A stretch of 64,000 bases of DNA from a phage, in assembly GCA_019326865.1 (NCBI GenBank), contig GCA_019326865.1_4101.1; one strand, given 5' to 3'. Position 1 is the stretch's first letter, and the number at the start of each line of letters is the position of its first letter. The notes below the pieces were generated by a model that made no database searches, had not been told where the DNA came from, and saw only the letters and a program-made list of their open reading frames with translations. This document shows positions 4,595-27,527 of this stretch, piece after piece. A program made the translations under genes and the position numbers.

Positions 4595-7336
4595 ATGGCT
4601 TCTAGACGAATTATAGGAAACGCAGATATACTAGGGAATTTAAAAATTAATGGAAAGTATGCATTACGTTCCCTTAATGGTGTTCCTGCTGACTCTGCTG
4701 GTAAAATCACTTATCAATATTATGACAAAGCGGAAGTAAATCAGATGTTTGATATGCTTCCAGTTTCAAGGGTAGGTGATCAAGATTACCTACCAATGAG
4801 TATTAACGGAACTTTTGAAGGTGCTTCTTCCTTTTCATTTGCAAAAATAATGCAACCTTGTATCATTGAAAATGATGGTACTGGTGTAATTTTACGTGCA
4901 GGTACAAATGGAAGTTCTTATGGTTACTATTATACTTATATTAAAAATATAAGAGATATAGAAACACTAACTCAAGATAATATAATTACAACCAATACGA
5001 TGTATAGACCGTCTGTGCTACCAAGTACTGATTACATTTATGAATTTTATGGGTCAAATGCATATGAATTACTATTTTGGGAATCAACTGATAGAACATC
5101 ATATTACCTTACATTAACAAATGAAACATTGAATGAATCAGCACACAAGCATTGCAGAATTCCAAAAACAGCAATAACAAATAAACCAATATATGCACAC
5201 ATCGTAAATGATTCAGTTTATATATGGTGTATGGATTCAAGTGTATTGAGTAGTGTTCGCGGGTGTGCATTTATTATATACACAGTACCTTTAACTGCAT
5301 TTAATACTGGTTCAGTTTCTACCGTAACACAGATTGGTGGTTATTCAGGAAGAACTATAAGAGATGCAACATATACTGCATCTAATAATATTCGCGTTTA
5401 TGATAGCTATTCTATTTTAGGTTCAGGTGGTGATGCACTAATAGTATATGATAATGGTGTTTCCAGAATAGATTATTGGGAAAATAACGTATTTAATACC
5501 CAAGCAGTTCTTAGCCCAGATGGTACAAAAATAAGAGTTGCGATCTATCCAGGGTTTCGTGTCTTTACCAAAACAAAAACATCTAGTGTATATGCACTTG
5601 GTATTAGCTTTACATATGATATCAGTACTAAAACAATGACACTTGATGGTTCTGAACGTGGTCCAATCAGAGTATCAGCTAATACATCAACTGGTAGTAT
5701 AACAGTAAGAAACCCGTTTTCAATCAATATGGAAAACTTTACAGGGTTTTATGACGGTGCACTTGGCAACTATGGTTCAATCTGTCAAACTTCTGATGGT
5801 TTTGTTTTCACTACCAAAGCAAGATGGACATCCACACCAACATATGCAGTACAAACATACAAAGTTTCTGGTACACCTTATGATAGTTGGGTCGCTAAAA
5901 CACGTACTGCTAGTAATTTAAAACGTGTCGAAGTAATGCCAGTTTATGGCTCCCCTGTCGGTGAAAACTTAATAGGTGTTCGTTTCGTAGATAAACGTAA
6001 GATACTTGTTGCATGTTCTGGCACTGCTGATGGAATTTCTTATGGTTATGATAGTACAGTTTTTACTGAAATAGGTGAGAATCCGACTTATGTTTATAAA
6101 AACTTGGAACAAAATACCACAATGAATGGTTTTGCACCATCAAGTAATAGACACTATTTAAGTACTGATTACAAATATGCAGGTATGATAACATTGGTTG
6201 ATGCAAATGGAAATGTCAGCACTTATGGTTCTTCGTTAATAGAAGACATCGATAAACCAGCGTATGGAAAATTCGACCCAGTTACAATGGACTTCGACAG
6301 TAATAGATATGAAATTTCAGGAACAACATTATCAAGTATAGGTGATAATGCAATTGCTAAAGCTGGATTGTCTGGAATAACTGATCATAAAACTGTTTTT
6401 TATTATGTACCTGATACTACATATTCTAAATCGATTGCAGTCACTTCTGCATTAAACGGTACTACCAATGTGTGTTATATTATTTTTTCCGAAATATCAT
6501 GTAGTGCAGTTGGTACAAGTGGTACTATAATTTTACGTGGTATTAATGTTGATACAGCAAGATATACATCAATGACGAATACATACCAAATTTCACCAAA
6601 TGAAATGGTCAAACGTTGGGCTGGTATGACGGTTTCTAAGTTTAATGGTTTTAACTACTTAGGCGTGAACATTTTATATGGCATTGATACCCCAGGTTGG
6701 ACTCGTTATCCTAACATGATTGCTAAAGTGAAAAATGGTATTATTTCAAGTCAACGATATATGGAAACAACTTATATTTCAAACGCACAATTTGATATAG
6801 GTACAATTCCAGGGATTGGGTTTGGATATTACCAAATGAACAAAAACGATTATCAAACTAAATCAGTTTTTGCTGTATGTGGTACTACTGAAGCAGATAT
6901 GGATAAACTAATATCTGGTAATGAAACGATATCACAGTACTTAGTTGTTGCTTCACAGGATGTGGCACAAGGGTTTCACGTATACTTTTCACAAGAAGTA
7001 CCAGTTTTCTTGGGTGGAAAGTTTGCAAAGATACCACCGACTATGATAGACTTATCTACCATAAGTACTACACCAGAGAATTCAACATTCTACATATATG
7101 CGGTGATGGATAGAGATACATCCACAGCATCGTATCAGATATCACTACATCAATTATCAGAAACTATGACATCAACATACATTGGTAAGATAGTAACTAA
7201 TAATAATGGTATTGCATCAATCGAGTCTGAAAAAGTTTCCAGATTCTTGCTATACCGTCCAAGTACCCACAGTCGTGGATCTGCTATCCCAGCTAGTTCT
7301 GGGTTACCATCACAATCTGGCTCCCGTTGGAAATAA
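4595..7336 (+). CDS. tail fibre protein, paralog B
   Basis: start moved to second ATG (MASRR...), which carries the same AAAGGRATATATAT-ATG initiation region as the gene at 1280; N-terminal LPVSRVGDQDYLP module. Confidence 0.6.
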   Translation: MASRRIIGNADILGNLKINGKYALRSLNGVPADSAGKITYQYYDKAEVNQMFDMLPVSRVGDQDYLPMSINGTFEGASSFSFAKIMQPCIIENDGTGVILRAGTNGSSYGYYYTYIKNIRDIETLTQDNIITTNTMYRPSVLPSTDYIYEFYGSNAYELLFWESTDRTSYYLTLTNETLNESAHKHCRIPKTAITNKPIYAHIVNDSVYIWCMDSSVLSSVRGCAFIIYTVPLTAFNTGSVSTVTQIGGYSGRTIRDATYTASNNIRVYDSYSILGSGGDALIVYDNGVSRIDYWENNVFNTQAVLSPDGTKIRVAIYPGFRVFTKTKTSSVYALGISFTYDISTKTMTLDGSERGPIRVSANTSTGSITVRNPFSINMENFTGFYDGALGNYGSICQTSDGFVFTTKARWTSTPTYAVQTYKVSGTPYDSWVAKTRTASNLKRVEVMPVYGSPVGENLIGVRFVDKRKILVACSGTADGISYGYDSTVFTEIGENPTYVYKNLEQNTTMNGFAPSSNRHYLSTDYKYAGMITLVDANGNVSTYGSSLIEDIDKPAYGKFDPVTMDFDSNRYEISGTTLSSIGDNAIAKAGLSGITDHKTVFYYVPDTTYSKSIAVTSALNGTTNVCYIIFSEISCSAVGTSGTIILRGINVDTARYTSMTNTYQISPNEMVKRWAGMTVSKFNGFNYLGVNILYGIDTPGWTRYPNMIAKVKNGIISSQRYMETTYISNAQFDIGTIPGIGFGYYQMNKNDYQTKSVFAVCGTTEADMDKLISGNETISQYLVVASQDVAQGFHVYFSQEVPVFLGGKFAKIPPTMIDLSTISTTPENSTFYIYAVMDRDTSTASYQISLHQLSETMTSTYIGKIVTNNNGIASIESEKVSRFLLYRPSTHSRGSAIPASSGLPSQSGSRWK

Positions 7337-11905: not shown

Positions 11906-12517
11906 ATGAACAAATATCATGTTTATTATACAACAAAGTTATCCCTTCTTGATGAATTAAATCACCGAAGTACTAAGATGAAACGTTATACTTTAAATGG
12001 TATTACTTTTCGATATTTCCCACAAAAAGTCCTTACTTTTGTCAAGAATCCAAAATGCGTGGCATGTGGGATTGAAGCCACTGAAGTACGCATTGAACGT
12101 ACATTTAGTTCTGATCCAGTTTATGGTAAACCACATTTAAATGTATATGCGGTATGTGGTCTTTATGAAGTGTTGATGACAGTTGATCACAACCATCTGG
12201 CATCGAAGGGTGGTTGTGATTTAGAGTCAAACTTTAATACTATGTGCTCCAAATGCAATCAACTACGTTCTAATAAAACCGAAACAGTTGATGAGTTTCT
12301 TGAGAAAGTTAAAGATCGTAATCTTCTCCAAGAACATATGAATAAATTCTTTAACGTACAAAAAAAGAAAAATAACATTGACAAGTCGAAACTACTAGAA
12401 GAACGTAGGTTACGTCAAGAATTATGGGAAACAGACCATCTATGGCATGTTCGAGAATTTGGTCGTCATATGAAAGCTTTGAAAAAAGAACAGAAGAAAT
12501 TGAATAAACATGATTGA
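11906..12517 (+). CDS. HNH endonuclease
   Basis: VDHNHLASKGGCDLESNFNTMCSKCNQLRSNK fits the HNH motif (DH...N...C-x-x-C-N). Confidence 0.6.
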   Translation: MNKYHVYYTTKLSLLDELNHRSTKMKRYTLNGITFRYFPQKVLTFVKNPKCVACGIEATEVRIERTFSSDPVYGKPHLNVYAVCGLYEVLMTVDHNHLASKGGCDLESNFNTMCSKCNQLRSNKTETVDEFLEKVKDRNLLQEHMNKFFNVQKKKNNIDKSKLLEERRLRQELWETDHLWHVREFGRHMKALKKEQKKLNKHD

Positions 12518-12927: not shown

Positions 12928-13326
12928 ATGCTTAAAGAATTAGATTTTTCAAACTTAGAAATTATCAGTGCTGTAAAAAACATTTCCGATATGGGTGATG
13001 AGAAAGCAGTTCTTGTTACTATTACTTTTGTAAAAGAAAAAGATAGCTATAGCCATTTAACGGGTATTGAAGAACTAATTCATAAAACCAATCTTGAGAA
13101 TGATGGTAAACTCATCAAGCTTCAGGCTTCCTATACGCAAAAAACGTCAAATTTTATAGACCTAAATAATGTAGTCAAGGTGGTATACAATCATCCTGAA
13201 CACACATATAGGAATACGTCAAGAAATGAAAATGTTGCTAACGATTCGAATATTATCGAAGATGTTGAATTCATAAACACAATTTTTGATCGTTGTTCTA
13301 AGGATTTAAAAAAAGTATACATGTAA
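12928..13326 (+). CDS. hypothetical protein
   Basis: 132 aa ORF. Confidence 0.6.
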   Translation: MLKELDFSNLEIISAVKNISDMGDEKAVLVTITFVKEKDSYSHLTGIEELIHKTNLENDGKLIKLQASYTQKTSNFIDLNNVVKVVYNHPEHTYRNTSRNENVANDSNIIEDVEFINTIFDRCSKDLKKVYM

Positions 13327-13329
13327 TGG

Positions 13330-13355
13330 GACATTATATGTTCCAATGATATAAT
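13330..13355 (+). promoter_or_regulatory. extended -10 promoter element (TGATATAAT)
   Basis: TGaTATAAT at 13347-13355; weak -35; same 9-mer recurs at five other sites. Confidence 0.4.
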
Positions 13356-13632
13356 GTATATAGAAAATGACAACGGACATTGAAAAATGGACACTGAGAA
13401 CCTACTTCTCTTGAAAATGTAAAGGATAGATGAGCTTTACCGTTGTAGCGAACAGCAGAAGAAACCTGTTAGAGTACTGGCATTCAAACAAACACGATAT
13501 AAGACCACGAATCACGGCGACACGGCTGTATAAAGAACTCCGATAAGCATACAGAGAGTTCCTAGATAGATGTATAAGGTTCGCACCTTACCAGATTTGC
13601 TAAGGGAGTTCAAGGATTGCGGACGCATTTTT

Positions 13633-13662
13633 TACAAGAAAGTTGCGTCCAAAATTTGAGAA
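13633..13662 (+). repeat. direct repeat copy 1 (TACAAGAAAGTTGCGTCCAAAATTTGAGAA)
   Basis: 28/30 identical to copy at 13785-13814; both preceded by a T-run. Confidence 0.8.
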
Positions 13663-13784
13663 CAAGTACTACTTTGATCGAATAGAGTTAGTACTGAGTG
13701 CTGTTGATGAAAAGACCAGCGACCGTTGCATATGACTGCGATAGAGAGAAACCGAGCAACCCGCTTTCGCTCTCTAATTTTTGG

Positions 13785-13814
13785 TACAAGAAAGATCCGT
13801 CCAAAATTTGAGAA
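13785..13814 (+). repeat. direct repeat copy 2
   Basis: TACAAGAAAGATCCGTCCAAAATTTGAGAA. Confidence 0.8.
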
Positions 13815-13850
13815 ATTCGCAATTCGATAATATCCGATGCCATCATCGTC

Positions 13851-13878
13851 AAGAGAGACTTAATTGTCTCTTTTTTAT
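13851..13878 (+). terminator. intrinsic terminator closing the ORF-free island
   Basis: stem AAGAGAGAC/GTCTCTTTT (up to 9 bp), loop TTAATT, T6 run. Confidence 0.65.
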
Positions 13879-14016
13879 TACCTTCATTCCCCTGCGGGGG
13901 GATGTAATAGTCCTCAACAAATCCCGTCAAGTCTTTAAAGTACATTATCATTTTTAGAAGGAACTAGTTTACGAAGTAAACGCAGTGACTTCTTGAGTTA
14001 CGAGAGAACGAAGTGA

Positions 14017-14445
14017 ATGAGTAACACAACGAAAATATCCGATAAATCTGAATTAACACAAATGTTATTCAAAGAATATTTTGAGTTTCAGATAAAAGAC
14101 GAACATCAATTACCACAGCAATATTTGAAAAGAATTAAAGATCCGTCAATAATTACTAAAGAAACAAATTTTTATAATAGTATTTTGGATTTCGTTAAAT
14201 CAGTTCATACAACAAGACCTATTGTAGTTTTGTTTTTTGATAAATCTATTCCTTTAGTAGTTCCTGAAAATGTAGTTTTTATTTCAGAAACTGATTTAAA
14301 TAACCAAAGTACTGTAAGTAGACTAAGAAATTGCTTACTTGTAGTATGTGATTCTTCGTTGTATAATAACAGAATACTATGGGATAGAAGTAAACGCAAT
14401 GCAATTGCAGAAATGAATCCTGAAGTTACATTTATTATTAACTAA
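14017..14445 (+). CDS. hypothetical protein
   Basis: 142 aa ORF. Confidence 0.6.
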   Translation: MSNTTKISDKSELTQMLFKEYFEFQIKDEHQLPQQYLKRIKDPSIITKETNFYNSILDFVKSVHTTRPIVVLFFDKSIPLVVPENVVFISETDLNNQSTVSRLRNCLLVVCDSSLYNNRILWDRSKRNAIAEMNPEVTFIIN

Positions 14446-14476: not shown

Positions 14477-14917
14477 ATGGAAAATATTGAAAATTTAAGA
14501 CATGTTATGGATTTTATCATTGATACTGAAGAAGATAATGCTTATGATGAAATCTTACTAACTTTTATTGAAAATAGTTTGTTTTTAAGTTCTGCTGCAC
14601 ATAGCTGGCATTTACAAAGCCGTTTCTACACAAAGCATCTTCAATTGGATGAACTATACAAAGAGTTACCAGAGTACGTTGATGCATTTGTTGAGGGTAT
14701 AATGAATACTCGTGGGGCATTACAGGTAGGTACTGGTAACAGTTATCGATTTACCCACATTGAGGATTGTGTTCCAATTCTTGAAGAGTATTCTAGCCAA
14801 TGTAAAGCAATTCATGCTATGCTCGAAGAGGCAGAAGACTATGGCAGTACTAACACACTAGAAGATATTATGAGTTTTGTCGATGGTGTGCTTTACAAAC
14901 TTAAAGTGTTACAATAA
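14477..14917 (+). CDS. Dps/ferritin-like protein
   Basis: AAHSWHLQSRFYTKHLQLDELYKELPEYVDAFVE parallels Dps HWN...HEMLD...; AAGGAG RBS. Confidence 0.5.
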   Translation: MENIENLRHVMDFIIDTEEDNAYDEILLTFIENSLFLSSAAHSWHLQSRFYTKHLQLDELYKELPEYVDAFVEGIMNTRGALQVGTGNSYRFTHIEDCVPILEEYSSQCKAIHAMLEEAEDYGSTNTLEDIMSFVDGVLYKLKVLQ

Positions 14918-27149: not shown

Positions 27150-27527
27150 ATGGCTGCTAATGACGTTAAAGTAAAAACTATTCAAGCTATCGTAGTACTG
27201 AAAGATTCAACTCCATCTCCTAAAGAATTGGTAATGGCTGGGATGACAATGCTTCATCAATACAATCCTGAATCACCAAATTATGTTCAAGAATACGAAG
27301 CAAAGCAGTTTAAAGAACATTGGCAGTCATGGATTAAAGATAATGAAATGGAGCAAGTTGTTTATGCTGCTGATGACATTTTCGAATTAGAACAAATTGA
27401 ATATCTAGCAGGTCAACAATCTGTGCCGTTGAGTATCTTCGGTAATGGTGAAGAAGTCTTAGTTCTAGGACCATTCACTGCCGATGTAATTACACACTTA
27501 CTAAGTAATTGTGAAAAAATTGGCTAA
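27150..27527 (+). CDS. hypothetical protein
   Basis: 125 aa ORF. Confidence 0.55.
   Translation: MAANDVKVKTIQAIVVLKDSTPSPKELVMAGMTMLHQYNPESPNYVQEYEAKQFKEHWQSWIKDNEMEQVVYAADDIFELEQIEYLAGQQSVPLSIFGNGEEVLVLGPFTADVITHLLSNCEKIG

Follow-up and report, generated by a model that had tools for sequence, protein, structure and literature searches.

The locus and its transcription signals

The window analysed here is a 64,000-nucleotide (nt) stretch of phage DNA (contig GCA_019326865.1_4101.1), and the subject of this study is an interval at 13328–14025 that lies between two + strand genes and runs into the start of the second. We regard this interval as specifying a new class of large structured RNA, with high confidence that the RNA is real, whereas our confidence in any specific function is moderate to low. 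We consider it probable that 13328–14025 is an independent gene for a large structured noncoding RNA (ncRNA), which we propose acts in trans as a folded molecule. Together with its flanks, the interval shows 95–99.6% identity to the Asteriusvirus jumbo coliphages UE-S1, PBECO4 and 121Q (~350 kb; RaK2-like group). As a first-pass annotation of this DNA had pointed out, the + strand contains no open reading frame (ORF) of 60 amino acids (aa) or more between the flanking genes, the longest being 58 aa (13781–13957), and the GC content is elevated, at 0.41–0.43 over 13400–13900 vs 0.25–0.33 in the flanks. The features of the locus are as follows.

12928–13326, + strand: upstream ORF, DUF7325 gene
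13328–13355, + strand: sigma-70-type promoter, with the −35-like sequence GGGACA (13328–13333), a 16-nt spacer and the extended −10 element TGATATAAT (13347–13355)
13378–13389, + strand: 5' hairpin CAUU-GAAA-AAUG with a GNRA tetraloop, read from the sequence
13398–13607, + strand: 5' domain, helices Ha to Hf
13608–13663, + strand: variable stem Hg, carrying module 1
13665–13695, + strand: hairpin Hh
13699–13721, + strand: hairpin Hi
13721–13768, + strand: conserved core, consisting of GACCGUUGCA, the 5' strand of Hj (13737–41) and hairpin Hk
13771–13813, + strand: stem Hl, carrying module 2
13817–13828, + strand: continuous 3' strand, which closes Hj and pseudoknot PK1
13835–13848, + strand: small hairpin Hm, CGAUG/CAUCG
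13851–13878, + strand: predicted intrinsic terminator (stem 13851–59/13866–74, loop UUAAUU, then a U-run)
13885–13932, + strand: post-terminator segment, with the G/C hairpin Ho, CAUUCCCC-UGCG-GGGGGAUG (13885–13904), and the tail AAUAGUCCUCAACAAAUCCCGUCAAG
13933–14025, + strand: 3' extension, with a layout conserved across copies
14017–14445, + strand: downstream ORF, phrog_35272

The promoter with its extended −10 element, already proposed in the first-pass annotation, scored 10/12 in our scan and contains the TG extension. The scan found 8 promoter-like sites in 1.7 kb, compared to 7.5 expected by chance. We nevertheless take this promoter as real, not on its score but because nearly all homologous copies are preceded by the same promoter at an equal distance. 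The sequence (T)GGGACA...TGnTATAAT was present at the matching distance upstream of most of the 40 copies in the alignment described below, as well as upstream of a copy in an Escherichia coli genomic island. Transcription is predicted to start near 13362. Elsewhere in phage 121Q, only the promoter part of our family profile found matches (27372–27414, 5253–5294 and 44755–44799 of L097, which is 121Q 1–50 kb; 188–223 and 23894–23934 of L098), indicating that the RNA uses a general phage promoter class, (T)GGGACA...TGnTATAAT.

The hairpin and T-run at 13851–13878 were seen both in the sequence and in the minimum-free-energy fold, as the earlier annotation had proposed; a simple terminator scan did not list this hairpin. 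All five loop-adjacent pairs of its upper stem (helix 18) showed compensatory changes across homologues. The terminator hairpin was found in roughly three-quarters of the copies and was absent from about one-quarter (e.g. L025, L030, L036 and pEa19). As conserved sequence continues past the terminator, and as the terminator is missing from these copies, two forms of the RNA may be produced, a terminated transcript of ~516 nt and a read-through transcript of ~660 nt. The locus thus has what is expected of a free-standing small RNA (sRNA)-type gene, with its own promoter at a conserved distance and a stem-loop followed by a U-run at its 3' end.

We also considered whether the locus encodes a small peptide, i.e. 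whether a 29–58-aa ORF or an 87-aa ORF is the functional product. The small ORFs proposed previously were present in the ORF listing, together with a − strand ORF of 87 aa (13688–13951) that had been overlooked and that some GenBank records annotate, and some database records annotate hypothetical proteins at such loci. However, stops or frameshifts interrupt all of the small ORFs, on both strands, in JNE01 (86% identity) and A4 (79%), the closest relatives that have diverged, and breaks were also seen in the second copy of 121Q and in GAP32, Hallingskeid and 7t3, such that no frame is conserved among relatives. As each ORF is interrupted even in the nearest diverged relatives, the coding interpretation is unsupported. 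Moreover, the indels are not multiples of three, the substitutions preserve base pairs, and the 87-aa ORF had no Pfam or PHROG match and was not conserved. A peptide product is therefore extremely unlikely.

Conserved fold of the RNA

Copies of the RNA were collected by motif pattern from GenBank phages, IMG/VR and metagenomes, and clustered at 93% identity. RNAalifold analysis of a first set of 23 sequences yielded 60 pairs, 35 of which had compensatory changes. We subsequently built a model curated by hand, comprising 97 pairs and 19 helices, and scored it on an alignment of 40 cluster representatives that retained the anchoring motifs (alignment A3). Standard pairs were formed in 86.8% of the pair cells in the model, compared to 41.6–44.7% when the partners were slid and 72.8% in column shuffles. 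The covariation score of the model was 0.392, compared to 0.07–0.115 for slid partners and 0.160 for column shuffles, none of 500 of which reached 0.392. Similarly, 65 of the 97 pairs had changes on both sides, whereas the corresponding values were 29–39 for slid partners and 49.8 for shuffles. The alignment contained 372 G-U cells vs 118 A-C cells. This excess identifies the + strand as the folded strand, in agreement with the direction of the promoter and terminator. From these data we conclude that the + strand RNA contains at least 16 conserved helices and two pseudoknots, and that this fold is kept by compensatory mutations across ~50 diverged copies. The pattern of substitution is that of a fold under purifying selection. 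Of the possibilities raised by the first-pass annotation, an ncRNA is thus the one strongly supported, by covariation, by G-U strand asymmetry and by the conserved promoter and terminator. Matches to the family were recovered by nhmmer with E-values of 1e-53 to 1e-151. The paired elements of the model are listed below.

13408–12/13422–26, + strand: Ha, with the conserved loop GAAAAYGUA
13434–36/13447–49, + strand: Hb
13452–56/13525–29, + strand: Hc
13466–69/13514–17, + strand: Hd, enclosing a variable region
13535–40/13556–61, + strand: He
13575–80/13585–90, + strand: Hf
13608–11/13660–63, + strand: Hg
13665–70/13690–95 and 13671–75/13684–88, + strand: Hh, 11/11 stem pairs with double changes
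13677–13683/13822–13828, + strand: PK1, formed by the Hh loop; 98.9% paired, 7/7 pairs with double changes
13699–13703/13717–13721, + strand: Hi (helix 11), 94.7% paired, 4/5 pairs with double changes
13725–29/13756–60, + strand: PK2, GUUGC with GCAAC in the Hk loop; invariant in the 40-sequence set
13737–41/13817–21, + strand: Hj, 99% paired
13744–48/13764–68, + strand: Hk, with the near-invariant 15-nt loop AAACNGRGCAACCCG
13771–74/13810–13, + strand: Hl (helix 15), 97.8% paired, 4/4 pairs with double changes
13835–13848, + strand: Hm (helix 16), 69% paired with little covariation

Approximately 80–100 invariant or near-invariant nucleotides join the helices. The 5' hairpin has kept its position in every copy while its sequence varies (e.g. 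CAAGGAUUGUCCUUG, AUGCAGAAAUGCAU and CAGGGAGC..GCUCCCUG). In the 5' domain, Hb, Hc and Hd were 99–100% paired, and Ha, Hc and He each contained compensatory changes in 4–5 pairs. The near-invariant strands that join these helices include G.UGAG, AGAAGAAAC, CAAUGCGGC, GAUAGACAUAUAAGG and CUAAGGGAG. The second, weaker hairpin that had been noticed at 13743–13775 corresponds to helix Hk, which was 100% paired in the 40 sequences. Hm is the weakest helix of the model, and RNAalifold proposed an alternative pairing at this position (13836–38/13848–50).

Both pseudoknots are accompanied by compensatory changes. PK1 occurs as UCGAAU/AUUCGA, UUGUAU/AUACAA and UUCAUG/CAUGAA in different copies. PK2 changes only in the diverged orthologues of this locus, with C-G replaced by U-A in six phages and, in RaK2, G-C replaced by U-A together with U-A replaced by C-G. 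The core is thus a double pseudoknot.

The direct repeats reported in the first-pass annotation are present (13628–13662 and 13780–13814, 35 nt, 89% identical), but they are interspersed, with a spacing of 152 nt, rather than tandem. Each repeat corresponds to a module consisting of a hairpin and a tail, with the consensus (G)UACAA-NNNAG-UUGUR-UCCAAAAUUUGAG. In the window copy, module 1 folds as GGACGCA/UGCGUCC (13621–27/13644–50) and module 2 contains the inner helix UUUUGG/CCAAAA (13779–84/13801–06). Paralogues carry a module at the first site, the second site, both or neither. In GAP32-type copies the first-site insert is replaced by a plain GCCA-GAAA-UGGC hairpin, other copies keep the module only partly, and module 2 is missing from paralogues located between endonuclease VII (endoVII) and baseplate-hub genes. 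We conclude that the direct repeats are duplicated and dispensable peripheral hairpin modules. The suggestion that they are a duplicated coding remnant (TRK[LI]RPKFE) did not hold up, since the small ORFs are broken in relatives and the repeats are an RNA module that is present or absent depending on the copy.

Conservation does not end at the terminator. The post-terminator segment, whose tail reads ..CCUCAACAAAUCYCGUCA, was near-invariant in all copies, whatever their downstream context, and its motifs were not found elsewhere in the window beyond chance. Because indels shift the reading frame, this segment is not coding. The 3' extension that follows contains these + strand elements.

13967–13981, + strand: C-GNA-G-capped hairpin guuua-CGAAG-uaaac
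13979–88 and 14007–16, + strand: two AACGNAGUGA motifs
13997–14025, + strand: last hairpin, GUUAC...GUAAC, with the ATG (14017) of the next gene in its loop

C-GNA-G-capped hairpins with covarying stems occurred at 0.77 per extension, compared to a frequency of 0.03 per 200 nt elsewhere in the window. The ATG of ORF 14017–14445 in the loop of the last hairpin lies beside a AACGAAGUGA motif, and translation of this gene could be coupled to the RNA. Pairing of the 3' tail with the 5' domain was also examined, and no convincing covarying helix was found.

Copies in jumbo phages and in bacterial islands

By blastn the interval was found in 72 phage records, all RaK2-like, from phages of Escherichia, Klebsiella, Salmonella, Erwinia, Yersinia, Cronobacter, Pectobacterium, Serratia and Xanthomonas. 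Identity outside the genus was 65–73%, and most records have nothing annotated under the match. Neither blastn nor nhmmer revealed a second copy within the window. The strict pattern identified two copies each in 121Q, RaK2 and BF, three in one metagenomic genome and four in a Hallingskeid-like genome; as this pattern misses diverged copies, 2–4 per genome is a lower bound. The second 121Q copy (326,533–327,296) lies between the endoVII and baseplate-hub genes and is convergent with the hub operon.

The genomic context of the window copy is conserved. In 121Q the equivalent gap lies between gp515 and gp517, which is followed by the Dps-like gene gp518; gp515 is labelled 'structural protein' in the record and belongs to the family DUF7325. 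Homologues of the DUF7325 gene were present in 70 RaK2-like records. We found a diverged RNA copy just 3' of this gene in 7/7 other phages examined, i.e. GAP32, RaK2, 7t3, Hallingskeid, Yen9-04, BF and EJP2 (nhmmer E-values of 1e-53 to 1e-85). These represent the other RaK2-like genera, apart from EJP2, which is itself labelled Asteriusvirus. The Dps-like gene follows the RNA where the downstream annotation is informative (RaK2 and BF). Other paralogues are also syntenic across genera, namely those between endoVII and hub genes, after GAP32_343 and upstream of a Dam methylase gene. As the locus is syntenic in all genera checked, the window copy is not a recent insertion, and the copies are old and vertically inherited. 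We conclude that the RNA is ancient in RaK2-like jumbo phages and occupies the same locus in each genus checked. The genes 3' of the RNA are unrelated between copies, and no fixed downstream partner gene was found.

Two further genes in the window lie close to the RNA.

11906–12517: free-standing HNH endonuclease gene, 203 aa, phrog_23285, 0.8 kb upstream of the RNA
14477–14917, two genes 3' of the RNA: Dps/ferritin-like 'starvation-inducible DNA-binding protein' gene, DUF5856, phrog_858

Synteny of the Dps-like gene with the RNA locus holds across genera, and an HNH gene likewise precedes the RNA at the syntenic locus of RaK2, 7t3 and Hallingskeid (L118, L119 and L120). In the phage copies L006, L016, L024, L026 and L028, an ADP-ribosylglycohydrolase gene is located 0.1–0.4 kb downstream, sometimes after a small acidic protein (MITAICE...). 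The copies of other genera at the window locus (L117–L123) form a separate subfamily characterized by GACCGUUGUA..GUAGUA..GGACAACCCGCC. The Asteriusvirus copy at this locus resembles the other paralogues more, which may reflect gene conversion between paralogues.

The RNA is also found in bacterial chromosomes. Among 5,426 complete E. coli genomes, two contained one copy, at 75.8% identity. In E. coli LR-29-1 (L102, from NZ_AP027515.1) the copy, at 3478976–3479465 of NZ_AP027515.1, resides in a ~10-kb island (7900–18300 of L102) between ffs, the gene for signal recognition particle (SRP) RNA, and ybaA. This island carries a tyrosine integrase gene split by IS3, a trio of genes for DuOB, DUF488 and mSLOG/DUF4326, and a serine recombinase gene. 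The DuOB, DUF488 and mSLOG/DUF4326 set matches the PADLOC candidate defence system PDC-M45, and the RNA itself sits in a 1.4-kb gap that contains no annotated gene. In Silvania hatchlandensis (L099, 189–10803) the copy is flanked by genes for a large serine recombinase and a CI-like repressor, in an element that also bears DarT, ADP-ribosylglycohydrolase and UvrD-like helicase genes. Inspection of the E. coli sequence showed that its promoter is still of the phage type and that the two modules, the terminator and the 3' extension are all retained, and the nhmmer alignment of the Silvania copy spans the profile from promoter to extension. The E. coli and Silvania copies kept 92% and 81% of the model pairs, respectively, with 16–20 compensatory differences from the window. 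These results show that the complete unit, from promoter to 3' extension, has been transferred into mobile islands of Enterobacteriaceae that contain defence genes. Three flanking proteins of the E. coli island (318, 257 and 150 aa) were tested for jumbo-phage homologues and none was found, which suggests that the RNA moved by itself as one unit.

These contexts bear on whether the locus is an ORF-less mobile or selfish element, or a decayed remnant of one, with the direct repeats as termini or scars. Several loci per genome, the recombinase genes near the copies in bacterial islands, and the HNH or endoVII genes near some loci would all fit such an element. On the other hand, each locus is syntenic across genera, as expected for old and vertically inherited copies, and the two repeats form optional hairpins within the fold. 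Target-site duplications and terminal inverted repeats were not found, nor were Rfam matches to introns, omega RNA or HEARO, and no transposase, reverse transcriptase (RT), TnpB or IscB gene is adjacent. The decayed mobile element proposed in the first-pass annotation is also at odds with an element that is intact, keeps its syntenic position throughout the RaK2-like genera checked and has a fold under purifying selection. We regard a mobile or selfish element, or a remnant of one, as highly unlikely.

Two contigs from genome collections provided further full-length copies. One is on a 2.8-kb contig binned as Clostridium sp. UBA10317 (L101) and is probably a mis-binned phage fragment. The other is on a 299-kb contig of Enterobacteriaceae RIT714 (L100), which may be a jumbo-phage contig inside a bacterial assembly. 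Pattern matches in GC-rich contigs (L045, L046, L049, L069, L095, L104, L106–L110, L112 and L114–L116) were rejected as chance, most of them lacking any other family motif; L046 and L069 sit inside long ORFs, and L095 was judged only by its clustering with L046.

Relationship to known RNAs and possible functions

The whole window was searched with the 4227 models of Rfam 15 at gathering thresholds, a set that includes OLE, GOLLD, ROOL, HEARO, raiA, group I and II introns, RNase P, tmRNA, 6S, riboswitches and small ribozymes, and no match was obtained. When E-values up to 10 were allowed on 13200–14150, only four chance-level matches to small nucleolar RNAs (snoRNAs) or long noncoding RNAs (lncRNAs) appeared, with 17–24 bits compared to thresholds of 45–80. 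ARAGORN found no tRNA or tmRNA genes in the 64-kb window, consistent with the earlier failure to fold a tRNA cloverleaf. A search of the literature for a description of such an RNA found none. The related phage PA5oct has four ncRNAs defined by RNA-seq (PMC7318152); the two that were compared, ncRNA001 and ncRNA002, were not homologous to the present RNA.

Several specific candidates were rejected. A group I or II intron does not fit, as the genes on either side are complete and not related from one copy to another, and neither Intron_gpI nor gpII matched. The arrangement CAGAUGAG-Hb-CGAA (GAUGAG...CGAA) is similar to a hammerhead ribozyme, but the equivalents of C3, U4 and A13 vary freely. 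The UCGAAU loop could be read as T-loop-like, except that its positions covary as Watson–Crick pairs. ToxIN-like type III toxin–antitoxin loci consist of tandem ~36-nt RNA repeats, a terminator and an endoribonuclease toxin gene; here there are just two repeats, 152 nt apart inside a larger fold, and the downstream genes are diverse. A CRISPR- or TIGR-type guide array was likewise dismissed, given only two repeats, an inter-repeat sequence that is the most conserved part and the lack of effector genes. The neighbours of the RNA are the DUF7325, phrog_35272 and Dps-like genes and the HNH protein is free-standing, which does not suit an omega RNA (IscB/TnpB) or an IS110 bridge RNA. Finally, CGCUCUCUAA followed by a hairpin resembles a lambda nut site, but it occurs in one subfamily only and is part of covarying helices.

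Very few classes of bacterial or phage RNAs exceed 500 nt and have complex conserved folds, among them rRNA, RNase P, group I and II introns, OLE, GOLLD and ROOL. Where the function of such an RNA has been established, it has turned out to be a catalyst or the core of a major ribonucleoprotein (RNP) machine. OLE, GOLLD and ROOL resemble the present RNA most closely in size, in their pattern of conservation and in their association with phages, although it belongs to none of these classes. Like OLE (RF01071), it is ~600 nt long, has many helices joined by highly conserved single strands and is apparently expressed independently. However, there is no sequence or structure match, and OLE is a single-copy RNA of Bacillota tied to the OapA/B/C proteins and to membranes, whereas the present RNA is multi-copy, belongs to AT-rich jumbo phages of enterobacteria and is not linked to any protein gene. 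RNAs of such size and conservation are usually RNP cores or ribozymes, according to the OLE literature (PMC11332333, PMC12054373). GOLLD and ROOL are also large (~580–800 nt) and ornate RNAs, often carried by phages or prophages and equipped with their own promoters, and cryo-EM has shown that they self-assemble into RNA-only multimers (10.1101/2024.12.08.627333). In this case there was again no Rfam match; the hosts are Lactobacillales as well as rumen and lake metagenomes, and these RNAs are usually single-copy and often lie beside tRNA genes, which the window lacks. Another phage-encoded structured RNA, phi29 pRNA, acts in trans in a phage machine and oligomerizes by loop–loop pairing; it is a 174-nt single-copy RNA of phi29-like phages only and has no similarity to the present RNA, for which a packaging role would be pure speculation.

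An alternative is that the RNA is a replication-origin element. In this model a structured transcript would prime leading-strand synthesis in the style of ColE1 RNA II or T4 oriF/oriG. A persistent RNA–DNA hybrid would form near the U-run and G6 tract, and CGAAG-capped hairpins of the displaced + strand would recruit primase or helicase. A 350-kb genome with several copies would then have several origins, and T4 has several origin-transcript sites per genome; islands would carry one copy for replication by an infecting phage. The size of ~520 nt, the sigma-70 promoter and the hairpin and U-run followed by an invariant G-run in the 3' region recall RNA II, a structured transcript of ~550 nt. 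The phages possess T4-like replisome and RNase H genes, and d(GCGAAGC) mini-hairpins are found in the origins of single-stranded DNA (ssDNA) phages. One copy adjoins a baseplate hub gene, much as T4 oriE lies near the T4 hub genes. The origin model would explain the fixed syntenic positions of several copies, the G-run and the conserved sequence with cGAAg hairpins past the terminator. It would leave the depth of structural constraint unexplained, as two pseudoknots and ~100 invariant positions far exceed what R-loop formation needs and exceed what is found in ColE1 RNA II or the T4 transcripts, to which there is no homology. In addition, GC skew had no inflection at either of two copies and tracked gene orientation, although this evidence is weak. 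The islands contain no obvious replication genes, their flanking proteins lack jumbo-phage homologues, and there is neither an iteron array nor a marked AT-rich unwinding element beyond the genome average. We consider an origin function unlikely.

Another alternative is a cis-acting leader, which would promote put/nut-like processive antitermination through its own terminator or control translation via the hairpins of the 3' extension. The order of promoter, RNA, terminator, conserved segment and same-strand gene is found here and in most contexts, the ATG of ORF 14017 lies in the loop of the hairpin at 13997–14025, and the absence of the terminator from some copies would permit read-through. 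Both HK022 put and lambda nut are promoter-proximal structured RNAs followed directly by an intrinsic terminator. In our comparison, CGCUCUCUAA and a GAAAG-capped hairpin in the subfamily of the window copy are loosely like lambda boxA/boxB. However, the boxA-like string contributes to helices that covary, and other paralogues lack it. The put and nut RNAs always head operons, and known antiterminator RNAs are 70–120 nt rather than 500+ nt, making the present RNA five times larger. The downstream genes are unrelated between copies, and the genes that follow the island copies, at 0.7 kb, are also unrelated. The endoVII–hub paralogue, whose conservation extends over many genera, is oriented toward genes of the opposite strand; as it is convergent with them, the RNA cannot simply be their leader. 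A leader or antiterminator fits most contexts but accounts for neither the convergent paralogue nor the size of the RNA, and we judge it quite improbable, slightly more so than an origin.

The interpretation that we favour is thus a free-standing gene for an RNA acting in trans. In this model, host sigma-70 RNA polymerase would initiate at ~13362 early in infection; most transcripts would end at the terminator (~516 nt) and some would read through into the conserved 3' extension. The RNA would then function in trans, either as an RNP scaffold or as a molecule that is ribozyme-like or assembles by itself, as thought for OLE, GOLLD and ROOL. As no protein gene travels with the RNA, it probably acts with host factors or alone. 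That virulent phages and defence islands both carry it suggests that it takes part in phage–host conflict. A bolder version of this model, which we offer tentatively as a possibility short of even chances, is that this undescribed double-pseudoknotted RNA class, on a par with OLE, GOLLD and ROOL or with a large ribozyme in size and conservation, is an ancient core component of all RaK2-like phages, present in multiple copies, that has been captured whole by islands and is catalytic or self-assembling in conflict, being needed by the phage and serving as a decoy or sensor in the island.

Several observations weigh against a trans-acting RNA. The conserved segment and hairpins past the terminator are not explained by a simple terminated sRNA and fit a role in cis or at the DNA level. 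Paralogues at fixed genomic positions could mean that function depends on position. Most copies have downstream genes on the same strand, and here the next start codon is inside the last hairpin. The action in trans is deduced from architecture, and the proposed link to conflict comes from only the two chromosomal contexts that were inspected, the islands of E. coli LR-29-1 and Silvania. We also searched the literature for transcript data from RaK2-like phages and found none; the start, end and expression of the RNA given here are what we infer.

Each phage genome spends 2–4 kb on copies of this RNA, which has been conserved since the RaK2-like genera diverged. This conservation, the genome investment and the crossing into islands point to an important part of jumbo-phage biology. 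As the RNA occurs in cultivable phages of E. coli, Klebsiella and Salmonella (121Q, PBECO4, RaK2 and GAP32), the model can be tested directly by genetics, structure probing and cryo-EM.

Our results also call for a correction of existing annotation, as many GenBank records bear a probably spurious 'hypothetical protein' at these loci. Short hypothetical proteins are called over the RNA in 121Q (gp516), RaK2 (ORF014w and ORF245), 7t3 (7t3_0349–0351 and 0445–0447), Hallingskeid (CDS0412–0414 and 0500–0502) and fHe-Yen9-04 (g159–g160 and g347–g348); the reading frames concerned are not conserved, and these calls are very probably spurious.

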